This document shows, one piece after another, positions 15,547 through 22,121 of a DNA stretch of 64,000 nt. The translations under genes were made by a program, and so were the position numbers. Position 1 is the first letter of the stretch, and each line of letters opens with the position of its first letter. Below the pieces are notes generated by a model. The model searched no databases. It had not been told where the DNA came from and was given only the letters and a program-made list of their open reading frames with translations. The DNA is from Pseudomonadota bacterium (GTDB lineage Bacteria; Pseudomonadota; Alphaproteobacteria; Rhodobacterales; Rhodobacteraceae): positions 50,829 through 114,828 of the forward strand of contig JBCAXH010000006.1 in assembly GCA_038534155.1 (NCBI GenBank). The letters are read 5' to 3'.

Positions 15547-16449
15547 ATGACCGCCCACCTGATCGACGGCAAAGCCTTCGCCGCCACCGTCCGCGAGAAA
15601 GTCGCCGCCGAGGTGGCCAAGCTCAAAGCGGATCACGGGATCACCCCCGGCCTTGCGGTCGTCCTCGTCGGCGAAGACCCGGCGAGCCAGGTCTACGTGC
15701 GCAACAAGGGCAAGCAGACCGTCGAGGTCGGCATGAACTCCTATGAGCACCGGCTCGACGCGACGACGGGCCAAGCGGAGCTAATGACCCTGATCGACGC
15801 GCTGAACCACGACCCCTCCGTCCACGGCATCCTCGTGCAGCTCCCGCTCCCCGGCCATCTGGACGAGGACGCGGTGATCAACGCCATCTCCCCGGCGAAG
15901 GACGCGGACGGCTTCCATATCTCCAATGTCGGACTCCTCGGCACCGGGCAGAAGTCCATGGTCCCCTGCACCCCGCTCGGCTGCCTGATGATGCTGCGCG
16001 ACCATCACGGGAGCCTCTCGGGCCTGAACGCCGTCGTCGTCGGGCGCTCCAACATCGTCGGCAAGCCGATGGCGAACCTCCTGCTGAAGGACAGCTGCAC
16101 CGTCACCATCGCCCACAGCCGCACCAAGGATATCGAAGCGGTTTGCCGTCAGGCCGACATCGTCGTCGCCGCCGTCGGGCGCCCCGAAATGGTGACCGGC
16201 GACTGGATCAAGCCGGGCGCCACGGTCATCGACGTCGGCATCAACCGCGTCCCCGCGCCCGAGAAGGGGGAGGGCAAGATGAAGCTCGTCGGCGACGTCG
16301 ACTTCGCCTCCGCCGCCGAGGTCGCCGGCGCGATCACGCCGGTCCCCGGCGGCGTCGGCCCGATGACCATCGCCTGCCTCCTCGCCAACACCCTCACCGC
16401 CTGTTGCCGGGCGAATGGATTGGCGGAGCCGGAGGGACTGACCGTCTGA
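15547..16449 (+). CDS. folD: Bifunctional methylenetetrahydrofolate dehydrogenase/cyclohydrolase
   Basis: [62 protein letters not shown]. Confidence 0.97.
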
Positions 16450-16480
16450 CTTCCTCTGACGGGCATGGTTAGCTGATCCC

Positions 16481-18136
16481 ATGTCCGTGCAGATCCTGAC
16501 CGCTGAAGCCTCCGCCCCCGTCCGCGCCTGCGCGGAGGGGCTGAGCTTCTGGGGCGGTGTCGATCCGGCGAGCGGAGAGATCATCGACACCCATCACCCG
16601 GATTGCGGCGCCAGCGTCGCGGGCCGCATCCTCCTCATGCCCACCTCGCGCGGCTCCTGCTCAGGCAGCGGCGTCCTTCTGGAACTGGCGCTGAACGGGC
16701 GCGCCCCCGCCGCCCTGATCTTCCGCGAAGCCGAAAGCGTCCTCACCCTCGGCGCCCTGATCGCGGCGGAGATGTTCGCTCGCCCGATCCCCGTCGCCCG
16801 CCTGTCGCCCGCCGACTTCGCCGCCCTCGCCTCCGCGCCCGAAGCGAGTATCGCGAAGGGCCGGATCGAAGCGCCCGGCCTCTCCATTCCGCTCGCTGCG
16901 CCCGAAGACGCGCTGCATCTCACCCCCGCCGACCGGGCCCTGCTCGCGGGCGACGACGGCGAGGCCGCCCAACTCGCCATGCGGGTCATTGCGGGCATGG
17001 CGCGGGCGGAGGGCGCGGCGCGTCTCACCGACGTCACCCGCGCCCATGTGGACGGCTGTATCCTCGCCAACGACGCCAACCTGATCTTCGCCGAAACCAT
17101 GCGGGAGCGCGGCGCGAAGCCCCGCGTCCCCACCACGATCAACGCGATCTCGGTGGACCGGGAGCGCTGGCGCGCGCAGGGAACCCCGCCGGATTTCGGC
17201 CTGAAGGCGCAGCGCCTCGCGGACGCCTACGTGGCGATGGGCGCCCGCCCCACCTTCACCTGCGCCCCCTACCAAGAGGACCCGCCCGGTTTCGGCGAAC
17301 GCATCGGCTGGTCGGAGAGCAACGCGGTAGTCTACGCTAACAGCGTCCTAGGCGCCCGCACCGCGAAACTGCCCGACTATCTCGACCTCTTCGTCGCCAT
17401 GACCGGCCGCGCGCCGGAGACCGGCCCCTACCTGACCGAAAACCGCGCGCCCCAGATCTCTCTGGAAGTCGATGCGCCGAAGGCCGCCGACGACGGCTTC
17501 TGGGGCCTCCTCGGCTGGCTCGCGGGCAAGGCCGTCCCGGACCGCATTCCCCTGATCGAAGGCGTCGCCCATCTCGCCCCGAGCGAAGACGACCTCCGCG
17601 CCCTTTGCGCCGCCTTCGGCGCAACTTCCGCCGCGTCTATGCTCCACGTCGCGGGCGCAACGCCCGAAGCCGATATGCCTCCCGCCGCCGATGCGAAGCG
17701 CATGAAAATCACCCGCGCCGATATCGCTGCGGGATGGAGCCGCCTCAATCAGGGTCCCGAAGAGATCGACCTCGTCGCCCTCGGCAGCCCCCACCTCTCC
17801 TTCGCTGAACTCCGGGCCTTCGCAGACCACCTCGCCGCCCCCGTCCAAACTGCCGTCATCGTCACCCTAAGCCGCGCCACCCGCGAGCGGGCGGCGAGCG
17901 AGGGCCTGATTGACCACCTTACGGCGCGCGGCGTCCGCTTCGCCGCCGATATCTGCTGGTGCTCGATCACCGAACCCGTTTTCCCGCCCGATGCCCGAAC
18001 GCTCATCACCAATTCCGGCAAATACGCCCACTACGCCCCCGGCCTTTCGGGCCGCGCCGTCCGCTACGGAAGCCTCGCCGCCTGCGCCGAAGCCGCCATG
18101 ACCGGCCTGGCGCCTAGCCCGCCCGCCTGGCTCTGA
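16481..18136 (+). CDS. Fused aconitase X (DUF126+DUF521), cis-3-hydroxy-L-proline dehydratase family
   Basis: LSFWGGVDP.SGEIID.HHP, GSCSGS, PTFTCAPY, WSESNAVVYANSVLGART, LGSPHLS, DICWC, ITNSGKYAHYAPG. Confidence 0.88.
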   Translation: MSVQILTAEASAPVRACAEGLSFWGGVDPASGEIIDTHHPDCGASVAGRILLMPTSRGSCSGSGVLLELALNGRAPAALIFREAESVLTLGALIAAEMFARPIPVARLSPADFAALASAPEASIAKGRIEAPGLSIPLAAPEDALHLTPADRALLAGDDGEAAQLAMRVIAGMARAEGAARLTDVTRAHVDGCILANDANLIFAETMRERGAKPRVPTTINAISVDRERWRAQGTPPDFGLKAQRLADAYVAMGARPTFTCAPYQEDPPGFGERIGWSESNAVVYANSVLGARTAKLPDYLDLFVAMTGRAPETGPYLTENRAPQISLEVDAPKAADDGFWGLLGWLAGKAVPDRIPLIEGVAHLAPSEDDLRALCAAFGATSAASMLHVAGATPEADMPPAADAKRMKITRADIAAGWSRLNQGPEEIDLVALGSPHLSFAELRAFADHLAAPVQTAVIVTLSRATRERAASEGLIDHLTARGVRFAADICWCSITEPVFPPDARTLITNSGKYAHYAPGLSGRAVRYGSLAACAEAAMTGLAPSPPAWL

Positions 18137-18142
18137 CCACCA

Positions 18143-18165
18143 CCTTCACGCTTCCCCAAATACTC
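18143..18165 (+). repeat. Dispersed intergenic repeat, copy 1
   Basis: CCTTCACGCTTCCCCAAATACTC; 19/23 identical to the reverse complement of 41355-41377. Confidence 0.65.
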
Positions 18166-18272
18166 AAAAAGCCGCGCAGCGGCTCCGTTTTTCGGCATAG
18201 CCGGAAAACGCCGGGCCCAACCAAGGCGATCGAAGATCGCCGCGGGCGGGAGACCTTGCTTTCCGCCGGGCG

Positions 18273-18623
18273 CTATCCTTTGGGCGCGATCCCCTTGTTC
18301 GCCGTCACCGCGAACGGGTTCTGGTAAAGCTGATCGTGGCTCTCGACGCCCACGTCGATCACGCAGTCCTCCGTGGGGCGCGCCACGCATAGAAGAATAT
18401 ACCCCGCCTGAGACTGCCGCTTGTTCAACGCCGTCCCCTTCGGCTGGCGCACCTTGCCGGAGATCATCTTCGCCGCGCAGGTGATGCAGCCGCCATAAGC
18501 GCAGGCGATGGGCAATTGCTCTCCCGCCGCCAGCGCCGCGTCGTAGATCGGCTCGTCCTCGGCGACGGAAAGGGCGACCCCCCGATTGCGGAGGGTCACC
18601 TGATGTCGCTTCGCGTCGTTCAC
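18273..18623 (-). CDS. Plant-type 2Fe-2S ferredoxin
   Basis: C-X4-C-X2-C (ACAYGGCITC) plus distal LLCVA; GTG start. Confidence 0.9.
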   Translation of the reverse strand: MNDAKRHQVTLRNRGVALSVAEDEPIYDAALAAGEQLPIACAYGGCITCAAKMISGKVRQPKGTALNKRQSQAGYILLCVARPTEDCVIDVGVESHDQLYQNPFAVTANKGIAPKG

Positions 18624-18748
18624 CGCCGGGCGAACCAGCGCGCGACGAGAGAGGCCCAGAATCCGCCTCCGGTTCGGGGCCGCCCCTCCCGCGCCTTGGC
18701 GACCTCAGCGGCCATCCGCGCGAGGTCGCCGCCATTGCAGCAGCTCAC
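18620..18748 (-). CDS. Putative 42-aa microprotein with N-terminal Cys-Cys (absent from the ORF track)
   Basis: Manual translation (M)SCCNGGDLARMAAEVAKAREGRPRTGGGFWASLVARWFARR*; GTG 3 nt after the SBP56 stop; TGA overlaps the ferredoxin GTG (GTGA). Confidence 0.55.
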   Translation of the reverse strand: MSCCNGGDLARMAAEVAKAREGRPRTGGGFWASLVARWFARR

Positions 18749-18751
18749 GCC

Positions 18752-20104
18752 TCACATCCAGATGTCGGATGTGACGTCGCCGCCCGGATAGCGCATCTCG
18801 TGGCAGCGGGAGGGCCCGTTCGGCTCGTTCCCGAAATCCACCACGAAGTCCGGATTGATCGACATGCCGCCGTTCTCCGTGTCGCAGTCGATCATGAACA
18901 TCTGCGCCCCCTTGTCCTTCATGTCCGGATAGAACTGGTTGTCCCAGGACGAGAAGAGCGAGGTCGTGGCGTAGAGCCGTTTGCCGTCCAGCGAGAGCTG
19001 GATCATCTGCGGCGCGCCCTGCACGGTCACCCCGTTCACCACCGGCGCCTTGCCGAGAAGCCCGCCGATCCAGACCTGCCCGGTCAGTTTCGGGTTCGCG
19101 GGGTCGGAGATGTCGTACTGCCTCAGATCGCCATGGAGCCAGTTGGCGAAATAAAGGAAGCGGTCGTCCATCGAGATCAGGATGTCTGTGATCAGCGACG
19201 GCATCGGCACGGGGAAGCTCTCGACCTCGATCGCCGGGATGTCGATCACCTTCTCGATCTCGAAATCCCCGTCATCCGTCTTCCACCAGCGGAAGACGTT
19301 GGACGACAGCGTCGCCGCGAACATGCCTTCGTTCGATTCCGGATCGTGCATGCCGCGGACTTCGAGCGGGATCATCCCCTCCGCGCCCATGTCGATCGAC
19401 TTGACGATTTTCTTGCCTTCGAAGTCCCAGAAATGGATCGACTGGCCGTATTTGCCCTTGCCGACGTCCTCGAGATCGAAGCCCGGCATGAACGTGTTCG
19501 GCGCGCCCCATTCGGAGGAGACCATCATGTTGTGCCGCGGCTGGTACCAGAAGTCGTAATTGTAGTTCATGCCGGTGATGTCGTTCTCCCACCTGCCGAC
19601 GATCTCGAACTCCTCGTTCACATGCAGGAACCCGCCCGGCGCATTTCCGTCGGCGTCGCCGAGCATGGAGATGATGATGTCCGGCCCGAGGCAATGCACC
19701 GTGTGCGGGGCGGAGAGATTGGTCTTCGCCTTGATCTCGTCGCCCGAGATCACCTTGTGAAGCTTGGGATTTTTCGCGTCCGACGTGTCGATGATGTTGA
19801 GGTTCGACGTCCGGACCCCCGGCATGATCAGATACTTCCGCTCCTTCGTCGCGTCCTGATGGCAGGAGGAGCAGGCGTTCCAGCCGGAATGGTGCAGCTC
19901 ATCCCCGATCTGGGGCATCTCGGTGCGCGCGACGACGCTGGAATAGGTCGGGCTTTCGGGGTCCACGTCGACCGTGGCGAGATAGTCGGGCGCCTCAACG
20001 CCGGTGCCGACGTATAGCGCGACGGTGTAGAGCAGTTTCTCCCGCTCCGCCTTCATCGCGTCAGCCGGCGAGGCGTAGCCGGGGCCGCAGCAATCCAGTG
20101 ACAT
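18752..20104 (-). CDS. SBP56/SELENBP1 family protein (methanethiol oxidase homolog), no signal peptide
   Basis: CCGPGY, PDYLATVDVDP, DELHHSGWNACSSC, YDFWYQPRHN, ITDILISMDDRFLYFANWLHGD, PQMIQLSLDGKRLY, HEMRYPGGDVTSDIW; RBS GGAGG. Confidence 0.93.
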   Translation of the reverse strand: MSLDCCGPGYASPADAMKAEREKLLYTVALYVGTGVEAPDYLATVDVDPESPTYSSVVARTEMPQIGDELHHSGWNACSSCHQDATKERKYLIMPGVRTSNLNIIDTSDAKNPKLHKVISGDEIKAKTNLSAPHTVHCLGPDIIISMLGDADGNAPGGFLHVNEEFEIVGRWENDITGMNYNYDFWYQPRHNMMVSSEWGAPNTFMPGFDLEDVGKGKYGQSIHFWDFEGKKIVKSIDMGAEGMIPLEVRGMHDPESNEGMFAATLSSNVFRWWKTDDGDFEIEKVIDIPAIEVESFPVPMPSLITDILISMDDRFLYFANWLHGDLRQYDISDPANPKLTGQVWIGGLLGKAPVVNGVTVQGAPQMIQLSLDGKRLYATTSLFSSWDNQFYPDMKDKGAQMFMIDCDTENGGMSINPDFVVDFGNEPNGPSRCHEMRYPGGDVTSDIWM

Positions 20105-20123
20105 GATTTTTCCTCCCTAGTTT

Positions 20124-20134
20124 TTGTCTGACAA
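20124..20134. promoter_or_regulatory. Palindromic operator candidate upstream of the SBP56 gene (GntR/FadR-like)
   Basis: TTGTC-T-GACAA, 20 nt upstream of the start codon. Confidence 0.45.
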
Positions 20135-20267
20135 TTAGCGGTCGCCGGGCGCCGCTTTGTCCAGCAAAATTCTGTTGAATATCTTGAGTTGTTTTCACTC
20201 AAAGAGCGAAGAGCGTAAGCCAGCCTCGTTTAAGGCGGCCTGACAGCCATCAGCGCAAATATTGACC

Positions 20268-20283
20268 CTTACGTTAACGTCAA
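20268..20283. promoter_or_regulatory. LiuR-like (MerR family) operator upstream of etfBA
   Basis: CTT-ACGTTAACGT-CAA with a perfect 10-bp core, immediately downstream of a TTGACC -35-like hexamer (20262-20267). Confidence 0.6.
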
Positions 20284-20430
20284 TATAGATAGGGCCAATC
20301 TGAGGCGCGGCGATTCGCACGGGCGGAAAGTCGCTTTCAGACGATGACGGATGACATCTCCCCGCGTAGAACGACGCGGATGCGAGTCGCCCCTATCCCG
20401 GGGCGGGAGAGGAAACGGAGTGAACGCGAA

Positions 20431-21192
20431 ATGAAGGTCCTGGTGCCTGTCAAACGCGTGATCGATTATAACGTGAAGGTTCGCGTGAAAGCGGACGGCA
20501 CGGGCGTCGATCTCGCCAATGTTAAAATGTCGATGAACCCCTTTGACGAAATCGCCGTGGAAGAGGCGATCCGTCTTAAGGAAGCGGGCAAGGCCGACGA
20601 AATCGTCGCCGTCTCCATCGGCGTGAAGCAGAGCCAGGAGACGCTCCGCACCGCCCTCGCTATGGGCGCGGACCGCGCGATCCTCGTCGTCGCCTCCGAA
20701 GACGTGAACACCGACATCGAGCCGCTGTCTGTCGCCAAGATCCTCGCCAAGATCGTTGAGGAGGAGGCCCCCGGCCTCGTGCTTTGCGGCAAGCAGGCGA
20801 TCGACAACGACATGAACGCGACGGGCCAGATGCTCTCTGCGCTCCTTGGCTGGTCGCAGGGCACCTACGCCTCCGAGGTCGACATCGACGGCGACAGCGC
20901 CAAGGTGACGCGCGAAGTCGACGGCGGCCTTCAGGTCGTCGACGTGAAGATGCCGGCGATCATCTCGGTCGACCTGCGTCTGAACGAGCCGCGCTACGCA
21001 TCGCTGCCGAACATCATGAAGGCGAAGAAGAAGCCGCTGGATGAGAAGACGCCCGCCGATTACGGCGTCGACGTCTCGCCGCGCCTGACCGTCGTCTCCA
21101 CCACCGAGCCGCCTGCGCGCGCCGCCGGCGTCAAGGTCGCCGACATCAACGAGCTGGTTGCGAAACTCAAAGACGAAGCGGGGGTTATCTGA
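20431..21192 (+). CDS. etfB: Electron transfer flavoprotein beta subunit
   Basis: Start moved to ATG 20431: [56 protein letters not shown]. Confidence 0.97.
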
Positions 21193-22121
21193 TGGCCGTT
21201 CTTCTTCTCGCCGAAATCGCCGGTGGCGAGCTTTCCGTCGATCAGACCGCGAAAGCGCTGACCGCAGTGAAATCGCTGGGCGACGTCACCATCCTTTGCG
21301 CCGACGAAGGCTGCGACGGGGCCGCTCAGGCCGCCGCCAAACTCGACGGCGTCTCCAAGGTGCTGTGCGCCTCCGACGCCGGTCACGCCCACGGCATGGC
21401 CGAGGCGGTCGCGTCCACGATCGTTTCGCTCGCGGGCGATTACGAGCACATCTGCGCCCCCGCCACCGTGCAGGGCAAGAACGTGCTGCCGCGCGTCGCG
21501 GCCATGCTGGATGCGATGGTCATCACCGACATCACCGAGGTGCGCGGCGCGGACGAGTTCGAGCGTCCGATCTACGCCGGCAACGCGTTGCAGGTCGTGA
21601 AGACCTCCGACGCGAAGAAGGTCTTCTCCATTCGCACCGCCGGCTTCGACGCCGCGGGCGAGGGCGTCTCCGCTCCGGTCGAGACCGTCGCGGCTGGTGA
21701 GAACCCGGGTCTTTCCTCCTGGGTTGAGGACAAATTCGCCTCGTCGGATCGTCCTGAGCTGACCTCCGCCAAGATCGTCATCTCCGGCGGTCGCGGCATC
21801 GGCTCCGCCGAGAACTTCGCGATCATCGAGAAGGTCGCGGACAAGCTCGGCGCCGCCGTCGGCGCTTCGCGCGCCGCGGTCGACTCGGGTTACGCGCCGA
21901 ACGACTGGCAGGTCGGCCAGACCGGCAAGGTCGTCGCGCCTGAGCTCTACATCGCCGTCGGCATCTCTGGCGCCATTCAGCACCTCGCGGGCATGAAGGA
22001 CTCGAAGATCATCGTCGCGATCAACAAGGATGAGGAAGCTCCGATCTTCCAGGTCGCCGACTACGGCCTGGTCGCGGACCTCTTCACCGCCGTGCCGGAG
22101 CTGGAAGCCGCTCTCGGCTGA
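21192..22121 (+). CDS. etfA: Electron transfer flavoprotein alpha subunit
   Basis: SGGRG, GASRAAVDSG, QVGQTGKVVAPELYIAVGISGAIQHLAGM; TGATG coupling to etfB. Confidence 0.97.
   Translation: MAVLLLAEIAGGELSVDQTAKALTAVKSLGDVTILCADEGCDGAAQAAAKLDGVSKVLCASDAGHAHGMAEAVASTIVSLAGDYEHICAPATVQGKNVLPRVAAMLDAMVITDITEVRGADEFERPIYAGNALQVVKTSDAKKVFSIRTAGFDAAGEGVSAPVETVAAGENPGLSSWVEDKFASSDRPELTSAKIVISGGRGIGSAENFAIIEKVADKLGAAVGASRAAVDSGYAPNDWQVGQTGKVVAPELYIAVGISGAIQHLAGMKDSKIIVAINKDEEAPIFQVADYGLVADLFTAVPELEAALG

Follow-up and report, generated by a model that had tools for sequence, protein, structure and literature searches.

SBP56/SELENBP1 proteins range from bacteria to humans. In the window, the whole stretch of 64,000 nucleotides of alphaproteobacterial DNA analysed here, the gene for a cytoplasmic member of this family is followed by a ferredoxin gene, and the gap between the two is filled by a small ORF. 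This raises the question of whether the ORF is a gene and, if so, what its product would do beside the two proteins. The features of the locus are as follows.

18752..20104, minus strand: SBP56/SELENBP1-like cytoplasmic thiol (methanethiol) oxidase homolog, 450 aa, first gene of the module (Pfam PF05694, E 9e-208)
18620..18748, minus strand: microprotein gene, GTG start, 42 codons plus TGA (ORF listing; orthologues in 21 other loci)
18737..18742, minus strand: vicinal Cys-Cys pair, codons 3-4 of the microprotein (alignment of 20 orthologues)
18623..18661, minus strand: predicted basic Trp/Arg-rich C-terminal helix, codons 30-42 of the microprotein (AlphaFold2)
18746..18754, minus strand: upstream coupling junction, SBP56 stop TGA, 3-nt spacer, microprotein GTG (sequence)
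18620..18623, minus strand: downstream coupling junction, GTGA, microprotein stop overlapping the ferredoxin start (sequence)
18273..18623, minus strand: plant-type [2Fe-2S] ferredoxin, 116 aa, last gene of the module (Pfam PF00111, E 7e-13)
20106..20134, minus strand: weak sigma-70-like promoter match just 5' of SBP56 (consensus scan only, 9 of 12 matches)

The SBP56 protein scored 146 bits against the NCBIfam MtoX model, of which the cutoff is 650, and the ferredoxin gave a match to TIGR02008 (fdx_plant-like) below the cutoff. SELENBP1 is a Cu-dependent thiol oxidase with the ligands H137, H140, D189, and E252 (PMC10362175), and equivalents of the Cu ligands of the human protein (HxxH, YDF, PLE) were found in the SBP56 sequence of the window. 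The neighbours of the module (15547-18136 and 20344-22121) are folD, an AcnX-type aconitase-X gene, and the divergently transcribed etfB/etfA, none of which is conserved beside the module in other genera. Positions 18137-18272, between the ferredoxin gene and the convergent AcnX gene, are occupied by a dispersed, REP/MITE-like repeat with 28 further partial or full copies (72-100% identity) spread over many contigs of this genome; shuffled sequences fold just as stably (z 0.02).

The original prediction had described a GTG-started 42-aa ORF that fills the gap, with mostly G/C-ending codons and a stop overlapping the next start. We found the ORF at these positions with the identical peptide, and its TGA shares a GTGA with the GTG of the ferredoxin. 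GC3 in the ORF frame was 0.84, as compared with 0.89 for SBP56 and 0.85 for the ferredoxin. At the composition of the window (66% GC), a given frame stays open for 42 codons by chance with P ~0.39, and the ORF is in frame with SBP56 across the TGA of SBP56. Taken singly, the ORF of the window is no more than chance, and its significance comes only from the comparison across genomes.

A DNA search that took in 40 relatives revealed that most SBP56–ferredoxin pairs are gapless, with the ferredoxin start overlapping the SBP56 stop. A Pikeienuella MAG (G014), which belongs to the genus of the window, has an ORF of 40-41 codons that starts with MCCC and lies in a frame relative to SBP56 different from that in the window. 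Later, 80 loci around SBP56 homologs were fetched (571 relatives were found). A ferredoxin gene lies directly 3' of the cytoplasmic SBP56 in ~72 of the 80, usually with a stop/start overlap, and such pairs span Pseudomonadota, Actinomycetota, Chloroflexota, Acidobacteriota, and Entotheonella. Most of these modules are devoid of the microprotein. An ORF of 31-42 codons was present in the same slot in 22 loci including the window: ten loci of Anderseniella, six of Neomegalonema, two of Pikeienuella (the window and L024), one of Pseudaestuariivita atlantica, one of an uncultured Rhodobacteraceae genome, and two further carriers with the same three-gene context, a metagenome contig (L110) and an ENA contig (L112). 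The carrier P. atlantica 22II-S11-z3 (locus L032) is a cultured strain.

The distance from the SBP56 stop to the start of the microprotein ORF ranges from -1 to +5 nt, and the end of the ORF coincides with the ferredoxin start or falls just short of it; the window, with its 3-nt spacer and GTGA overlap, has the position that is typical of the family. Among the loci, the frame of the ORF relative to SBP56 is 0, +1, or +2, and the SBP56 stop is TAA, TAG, or TGA. Where the ferredoxin start is clear (the window, Anderseniella, L032, L033, and L040), the microprotein stop overlaps it as ATGA or GTGA, and the same overlap is seen in the truncated L029. Both junctions thus have the classic geometry of coupled small intra-operon ORFs (ATGA/GTGA), but the microprotein ORF differs from a plain coupled ORF in that amino-acid-level selection and an invariant motif are added. 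The Shine-Dalgarno (SD) sequence, which had been noted as poorly spaced in the window, is wanting throughout: no good SD was found at the SBP56–microprotein junction in any of the 20 aligned loci. Since the start abuts the SBP56 stop and the stop overlaps the ferredoxin start, a geometry that would allow reinitiation, translational coupling at the microprotein start can do without a strong SD. In one Anderseniella locus (L025:3457-3640), the microprotein ORF is intact and the ferredoxin frame leaves homology after ~17 residues, which may be due to an insertion or an assembly join.

In the alignment of 20 microprotein orthologues, Met1, Cys4, and Ala10 never vary, and at least 90% of the sequences have Cys3. 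All the members end with a predicted basic helix, and conservation is poor in the middle third of the peptide. Members of the Rhodobacterales type share M-C-C-C-G-G-G-D-L-A-K-A. The window peptide, which is closest to L061, begins with M-S-C-C-N-G-G-D-L-A and contains two cysteines, as against three in most orthologues; it has the M-x-C-C start, the Ala10, and the predicted basic C-terminal helix by which the family is recognised. The three Cys codons alternate between TGC and TGT among the loci, i.e. synonymously. The original prediction had been staked on the conservation of the frame and of the Cys-Cys motif in orthologous gaps, and both are kept in those of at least four genera.

Comparison of the orthologues by pN/pS (dN/dS had been called for originally) gave the codon-level signature of purifying selection. 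Among the ten Anderseniella loci, pN/pS was 0.25 in the ORF frame versus 1.18 and 1.81 off frame, and 17, 13, and 26 variable sites fell on codon positions 1, 2, and 3. In the nine closest of the Anderseniella loci, 28 of the 45 distinct variants were synonymous and 17 nonsynonymous in the ORF frame, where 23-28% would be expected to be synonymous (binomial p 2e-8 to 2e-6); the synonymous/nonsynonymous counts off frame were 9/36 and 6/39. More distant pairs of loci gave pN/pS of 0.36-0.67, with pS near saturation. As judged from these substitution patterns, the microprotein ORF is shown to be under purifying selection at the amino-acid level, in this frame only.

We placed the ORF on a maximum-likelihood tree of 86 SBP56 sequences. 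It mapped to a single SBP56 clade of 24 rows (support 99/96), and none of 500 label shuffles was equally clustered. The ORF is carried by 22 of the 24 rows, which comprise the 20 of the aligned family, a duplicate row (L024/L002), and the divergent and ambiguous L039. The other two rows, L029 and L034, lie inside the clade and have 15-codon remnants that still bridge the SBP56 stop to the ferredoxin start; the loss in L029 is an in-frame deletion of 63 nt. Since the remnants alone remain, the full peptide is dispensable in these two lineages. Two loci lie just outside the clade. L048 has a CC-containing mini-ORF of 21 codons, and in L056 (L056:3400-3804), from a gammaproteobacterial MAG, the frame of the ferredoxin is open as far as an upstream ATG, directly after which comes Cys-Cys-Cys. 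This MCCC stretch, which is in the ferredoxin frame, resembles the N-terminal half or first helix of the family, with the C-terminal helix missing. With the family profile it obtained 11 bits, more than any of 300 shuffles. If the upstream ATG is the start used, the Cys end may have been fused naturally to the ferredoxin in L056, and this arrangement hints that the Cys end would work beside the ferredoxin. Across 17 loci, the conserved neighbours of the microprotein are SBP56 and the ferredoxin only.

The family profile matched the window at E 5e-10 in its own genome and gave no further credible match when 400 alphaproteobacterial genomes, sampled evenly, were searched. Weak matches in eight other alphaproteobacterial genomes, adjoined by neither SBP56 nor a ferredoxin, were taken as chance. 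Among called proteins, three members were found in 5.8 billion clusters and four in 1.84 billion representatives, all of them unnamed, and the window copy was absent; the other matches among the 1.84 billion representatives were rejected as repeat-driven false positives. A pattern scan of metagenomes gained one locus, along with one false positive inside a larger enzyme. The window peptide gave no Pfam match at E <= 0.01 and no NCBIfam match at <= 0.1, and when the 20 orthologues were compared with known families only two chance-level matches were obtained (E 0.09 and 0.36). Look-alikes in the ESM Atlas (best score 0.78) belonged to unnamed clusters and gave no lead. The module was not described in the papers that came up in literature searches on SBP56 together with ferredoxin or 2Fe-2S operons; as far as such searches show, the microprotein family and the SBP56–ferredoxin module are undescribed.

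The ORF is thus very probably a real, translated gene, an assessment that comes from comparing sequences. Since position, motif, selection, and the restriction to a single SBP56 subclade agree across genomes, the comparison identifies it as a previously unannotated microprotein family that is tied to one subclade of cytoplasmic SBP56–ferredoxin modules. It is a clear case of a conserved small gene missed by gene callers. Translational coupling to a plant-type ferredoxin is almost always present in cytoplasmic bacterial SBP56 genes, and in one subclade a Cys-Cys microprotein under selection has come to lie between the two. With about two dozen loci, the family is narrow and of limited general reach.

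AlphaFold2 with the family alignment predicted residues 1-5 to be free and residues 6-20 and 28-41 to form helices (mean pLDDT 67.7). The peptide has a pI of 11.3 and a net charge of +5, SBP56 a pI of 4.6 and a net charge of -32, and the ferredoxin a pI of 8.3. The original prediction had described the C-terminus as a Trp/Arg-rich amphipathic segment. It is indeed rich in Trp and Arg, but the amphipathicity of the window helix is modest, with a muH of 0.34 for residues 30-42 and 0.64 for residues 31-41. The muH of the C-terminal helix is 0.8-1.15 in Anderseniella and 0.7-1.07 in Neomegalonema, compared with 0.34-0.64 in the window, and the muH of the Anderseniella orthologues was reached by 0 to 36 of 500 shuffles. 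The helix of L024 is weakly amphipathic, as in the window. In most orthologues the net charge of the helix is +3 to +5. No hydrophobic run of transmembrane length is present in the window peptide, of which the longest uncharged run is 11 residues. For docking, AlphaFold2 was run on the natural in-frame TGA read-through fusion of SBP56 and the microprotein with an alignment of 40 rows; the SBP56 part was modelled confidently (pTM 0.83), whereas the microprotein part had a pLDDT of 34-48 and gave no docking signal.

The original prediction had proposed a metal (Cu or Fe-S) chaperone or a membrane tether, either of which the peptide may plausibly be. The best explanation overall, to which we give somewhat less than an even chance, is that the ORF is a genuine gene whose product would be a thiol accessory to SBP56 and the ferredoxin. 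The thiol-ligand mechanism itself is tentative, at slightly lower odds. Ribosomes leaving SBP56 can reinitiate on the microprotein and then on the ferredoxin, so that the three products would be made in roughly matched amounts. The working part would be the flexible N-terminus, Met-(Cys/Ser/Gly)-Cys-Cys, and its vicinal thiols may bind Cu(I) for the Cu-dependent oxidase. Alternatively, they may bind Se or sulfane sulfur as the CC arm of SBP56 does, or relay thiol/disulfide reducing equivalents between the ferredoxin and SBP56. Through its basic C-terminal helix the peptide would be docked either to the membrane surface or to a partner, for which the acidic SBP56 is the simplest candidate. A thiolate ligand site is plausible because the arm cysteines of SBP56 bind Se and SBP56 enzymes need Cu. 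The N-terminal CC of Arabidopsis SBP1 (Cys21-Cys22) and the CxxC of human SELENBP1 (Cys5-x-x-Cys8) bind Se as R-S-Se-S-R (PMC11394908, PMC10362175).

The SBP56 arm is the nearest likeness: it too has vicinal or near-vicinal cysteines on a flexible N-terminus (residues 1-8 of the window SBP56 have a pLDDT below 50), and its core CCGPG recalls the CC(G/N)GG of the microprotein. Unlike the arm, the microprotein is a separate polypeptide of 31-42 aa. The echo of the SBP56 N-terminus pointed out in the original prediction stands as far as the CC is concerned (..DCCGPGY in SBP56), but the likeness stops at CCGxG, which is common to SBP56 of all clades; beyond CCGxG it is weak (z 0.4-5.1 against shuffles) and is mostly due to the Cys pair. 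An origin of the microprotein by duplication of the 5' end of SBP56 was rejected, since the likeness is limited to CCGxG and is not significant overall. Because the arm is present in SBP56 of all clades, the microprotein is no replacement for a lost arm.

Periplasmic mtoX clusters carry the maturation genes SCO1/SenC and MauG, of which SCO1/SenC, thiol-based metallochaperones, are thought to mature the enzyme (PMC6548844). Like the microprotein gene, these are small accessory genes directly 3' of an SBP56-family oxidase. However, SCO1/SenC has a thioredoxin fold with CxxxC, whereas the microprotein has 42 aa, two predicted helices, and no Pfam match; the module described here is cytoplasmic with a 2Fe-2S ferredoxin as the partner, while the mtoX cluster is periplasmic with a haem peroxidase. 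Another group of comparators is the short peptides of the Cox17/metallothionein type, whose adjacent cysteines (CC, CCxC) provide Cu(I)-thiolate sites. The microprotein, compared with them by sequence alone, is likewise short with adjacent cysteines, but lacks the twin Cx9C hairpin and the Cx9C pairs of Cox17. It also differs from MerT/MerF, since its Cys pair is at the extreme N-terminus and not in a transmembrane helix. The module is compact, with three genes, and at least one cultured strain has it, so that the parts played by the thiol arm, the metal, and the reductant are open to direct test.

An alternative that we regard as unlikely is that the ORF is a coupling spacer only, which carries ribosomes over structured intercistronic RNA to the ferredoxin while the peptide itself is functionless. 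The positions of the start and stop are the most strictly conserved features, the 15-codon versions in L029 and L034 still reach from the SBP56 stop to the start of the ferredoxin, and outgroup clades have a plain overlap of these two codons. The mRNA across the ORF (18612-18760, minus strand) folds into long GC-rich hairpins with z of -2.2 and -2.5 versus shuffles. Elsewhere, z was -4.2 in L061, -4.0 in L035, -2.5 in L040, and -2.4 in L046, so that the hairpins beat shuffles in the window and in four Neomegalonema loci (z -2.2 to -4.2); single-sequence folds were significant in about half of the Rhodobacterales-type loci. However, the Anderseniella mRNA gave no structure signal (z ~ -0.4), and RNAalifold on the ten Anderseniella loci found covariation support to be absent (term +0.17), so that the selection signal in this genus occurs without an RNA signal. 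A spacer requires no particular amino acids, yet the variants are strongly biased to synonymous in this frame only, and the Cys pair is retained across lineages whose DNA no longer aligns. Moreover, a direct stop/start overlap couples already, without an insert of 100-130 nt. Rfam covariance models gave no match at E <= 1 in positions 18000-20500 of the window, and no terminator-like site was found in the SBP56–ferredoxin gap. Unlike an attenuator or leader peptide, the microprotein lies between two cistrons, with no terminator-like site and with selection along the peptide. Since several loci fold more stably than shuffles, some of the conservation could reflect constraints on the RNA. The hairpins may have an added role in coupling or mRNA stability, and peptide-level and RNA-level layers may both be present.

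It is improbable to a similar degree that the peptide is mainly a membrane anchor, in which the cationic amphipathic C-terminal helix would recruit SBP56 and/or the ferredoxin to the cytoplasmic membrane, with the Cys pair being secondary. MinD and FtsA have C-terminal amphipathic membrane-targeting helices. In most orthologues the microprotein has, at its extreme C-terminus, a predicted short basic Trp/Leu/Arg-rich helix of high muH and net charge that recalls these, placed by AlphaFold2 at residues 28-41; unlike these, the helix is on a free microprotein and not on an ATPase, and it is weak in the window copy. Its amphipathicity being weak in both the window and L024 argues against an anchor, as does the location of the most conserved residues, which are N-terminal and outside the helix. 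L056 has the MCCC half on the ferredoxin without the helix. No member of the module is membrane-bound, and the longest uncharged run of the peptide is too short to span a membrane.

In a more far-reaching reading, SBP56 of this subclade would have the microprotein as an obligate third subunit, by which its chemistry is altered. Either the two would share a metal or Se/S site that is completed by the N-terminal thiolates of the microprotein and wired to the ferredoxin, or SBP56 would oxidise the N-terminal cysteines in a formylglycine- or RiPP-like manner. Glu255 and Arg268 (window numbering; codons within 19301-19342) are present in all 20 SBP56 proteins that adjoin an intact microprotein ORF, whereas His was found at these positions in 61 of 62 and 62 of 62 outgroup sequences, respectively. 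L048 is intermediate, with Glu255 and His268, and L056 has both His residues. A rebuilt SBP56 site would fit because the subclade lost the His at 255 and 268. However, as read from the sequences, the association of Glu255/Arg268 with the microprotein is one evolutionary event, hence a correlation only, and from strand geometry the two positions are unlikely to form one site. We consider the third-subunit reading to be quite unlikely; if true, it would define a new peptide-dependent type of Cu thiol oxidase and offer a handle on SELENBP1-type physiology.

Less probable still is that the peptide is a substrate or cofactor precursor, of which the N-terminal cysteines would be modified by the Cu-dependent SBP56 in a RiPP-like or formylglycine-type reaction. 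The two genes are co-inherited as a module, as such a pair would be. In contrast to RiPP precursors, however, no maturase of a known class is among the conserved neighbours in the 17 loci, the peptide has neither a leader/core architecture nor a recognisable cleavage site, and most SBP56–ferredoxin modules are devoid of it. Finally, it is hardly credible that the ORF arose by chance in the GC-rich intergenic DNA or that it extends the C-terminus of SBP56 by read-through: 39% of random frames are open for 42 codons and the window ORF is in the SBP56 frame across the TGA, but chance is contradicted by the conservation and selection tests, and a read-through or selenocysteine-type extension was rejected because the frames and the SBP56 stop codons vary among the loci.

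Two further observations concern the module as a whole. The microprotein clade mixes Parvibaculaceae, Paracoccaceae, and Neomegalonemataceae, and two loci from other species of the genus of the window (L004 and L006, in G007 and G012) hold an SBP56–ferredoxin pair of a distant SBP56 clade without the microprotein. Since the clade mixes families and congeners hold pairs of a distant clade, the module appears to be horizontally mobile. In one other SBP56 clade (L082:3332-3802; L085, L094, and L095), a 157-aa CoA_binding_2 gene (PF13380, E 5e-40) is located between SBP56 and the ferredoxin, which is a different accessory gene in the same slot.
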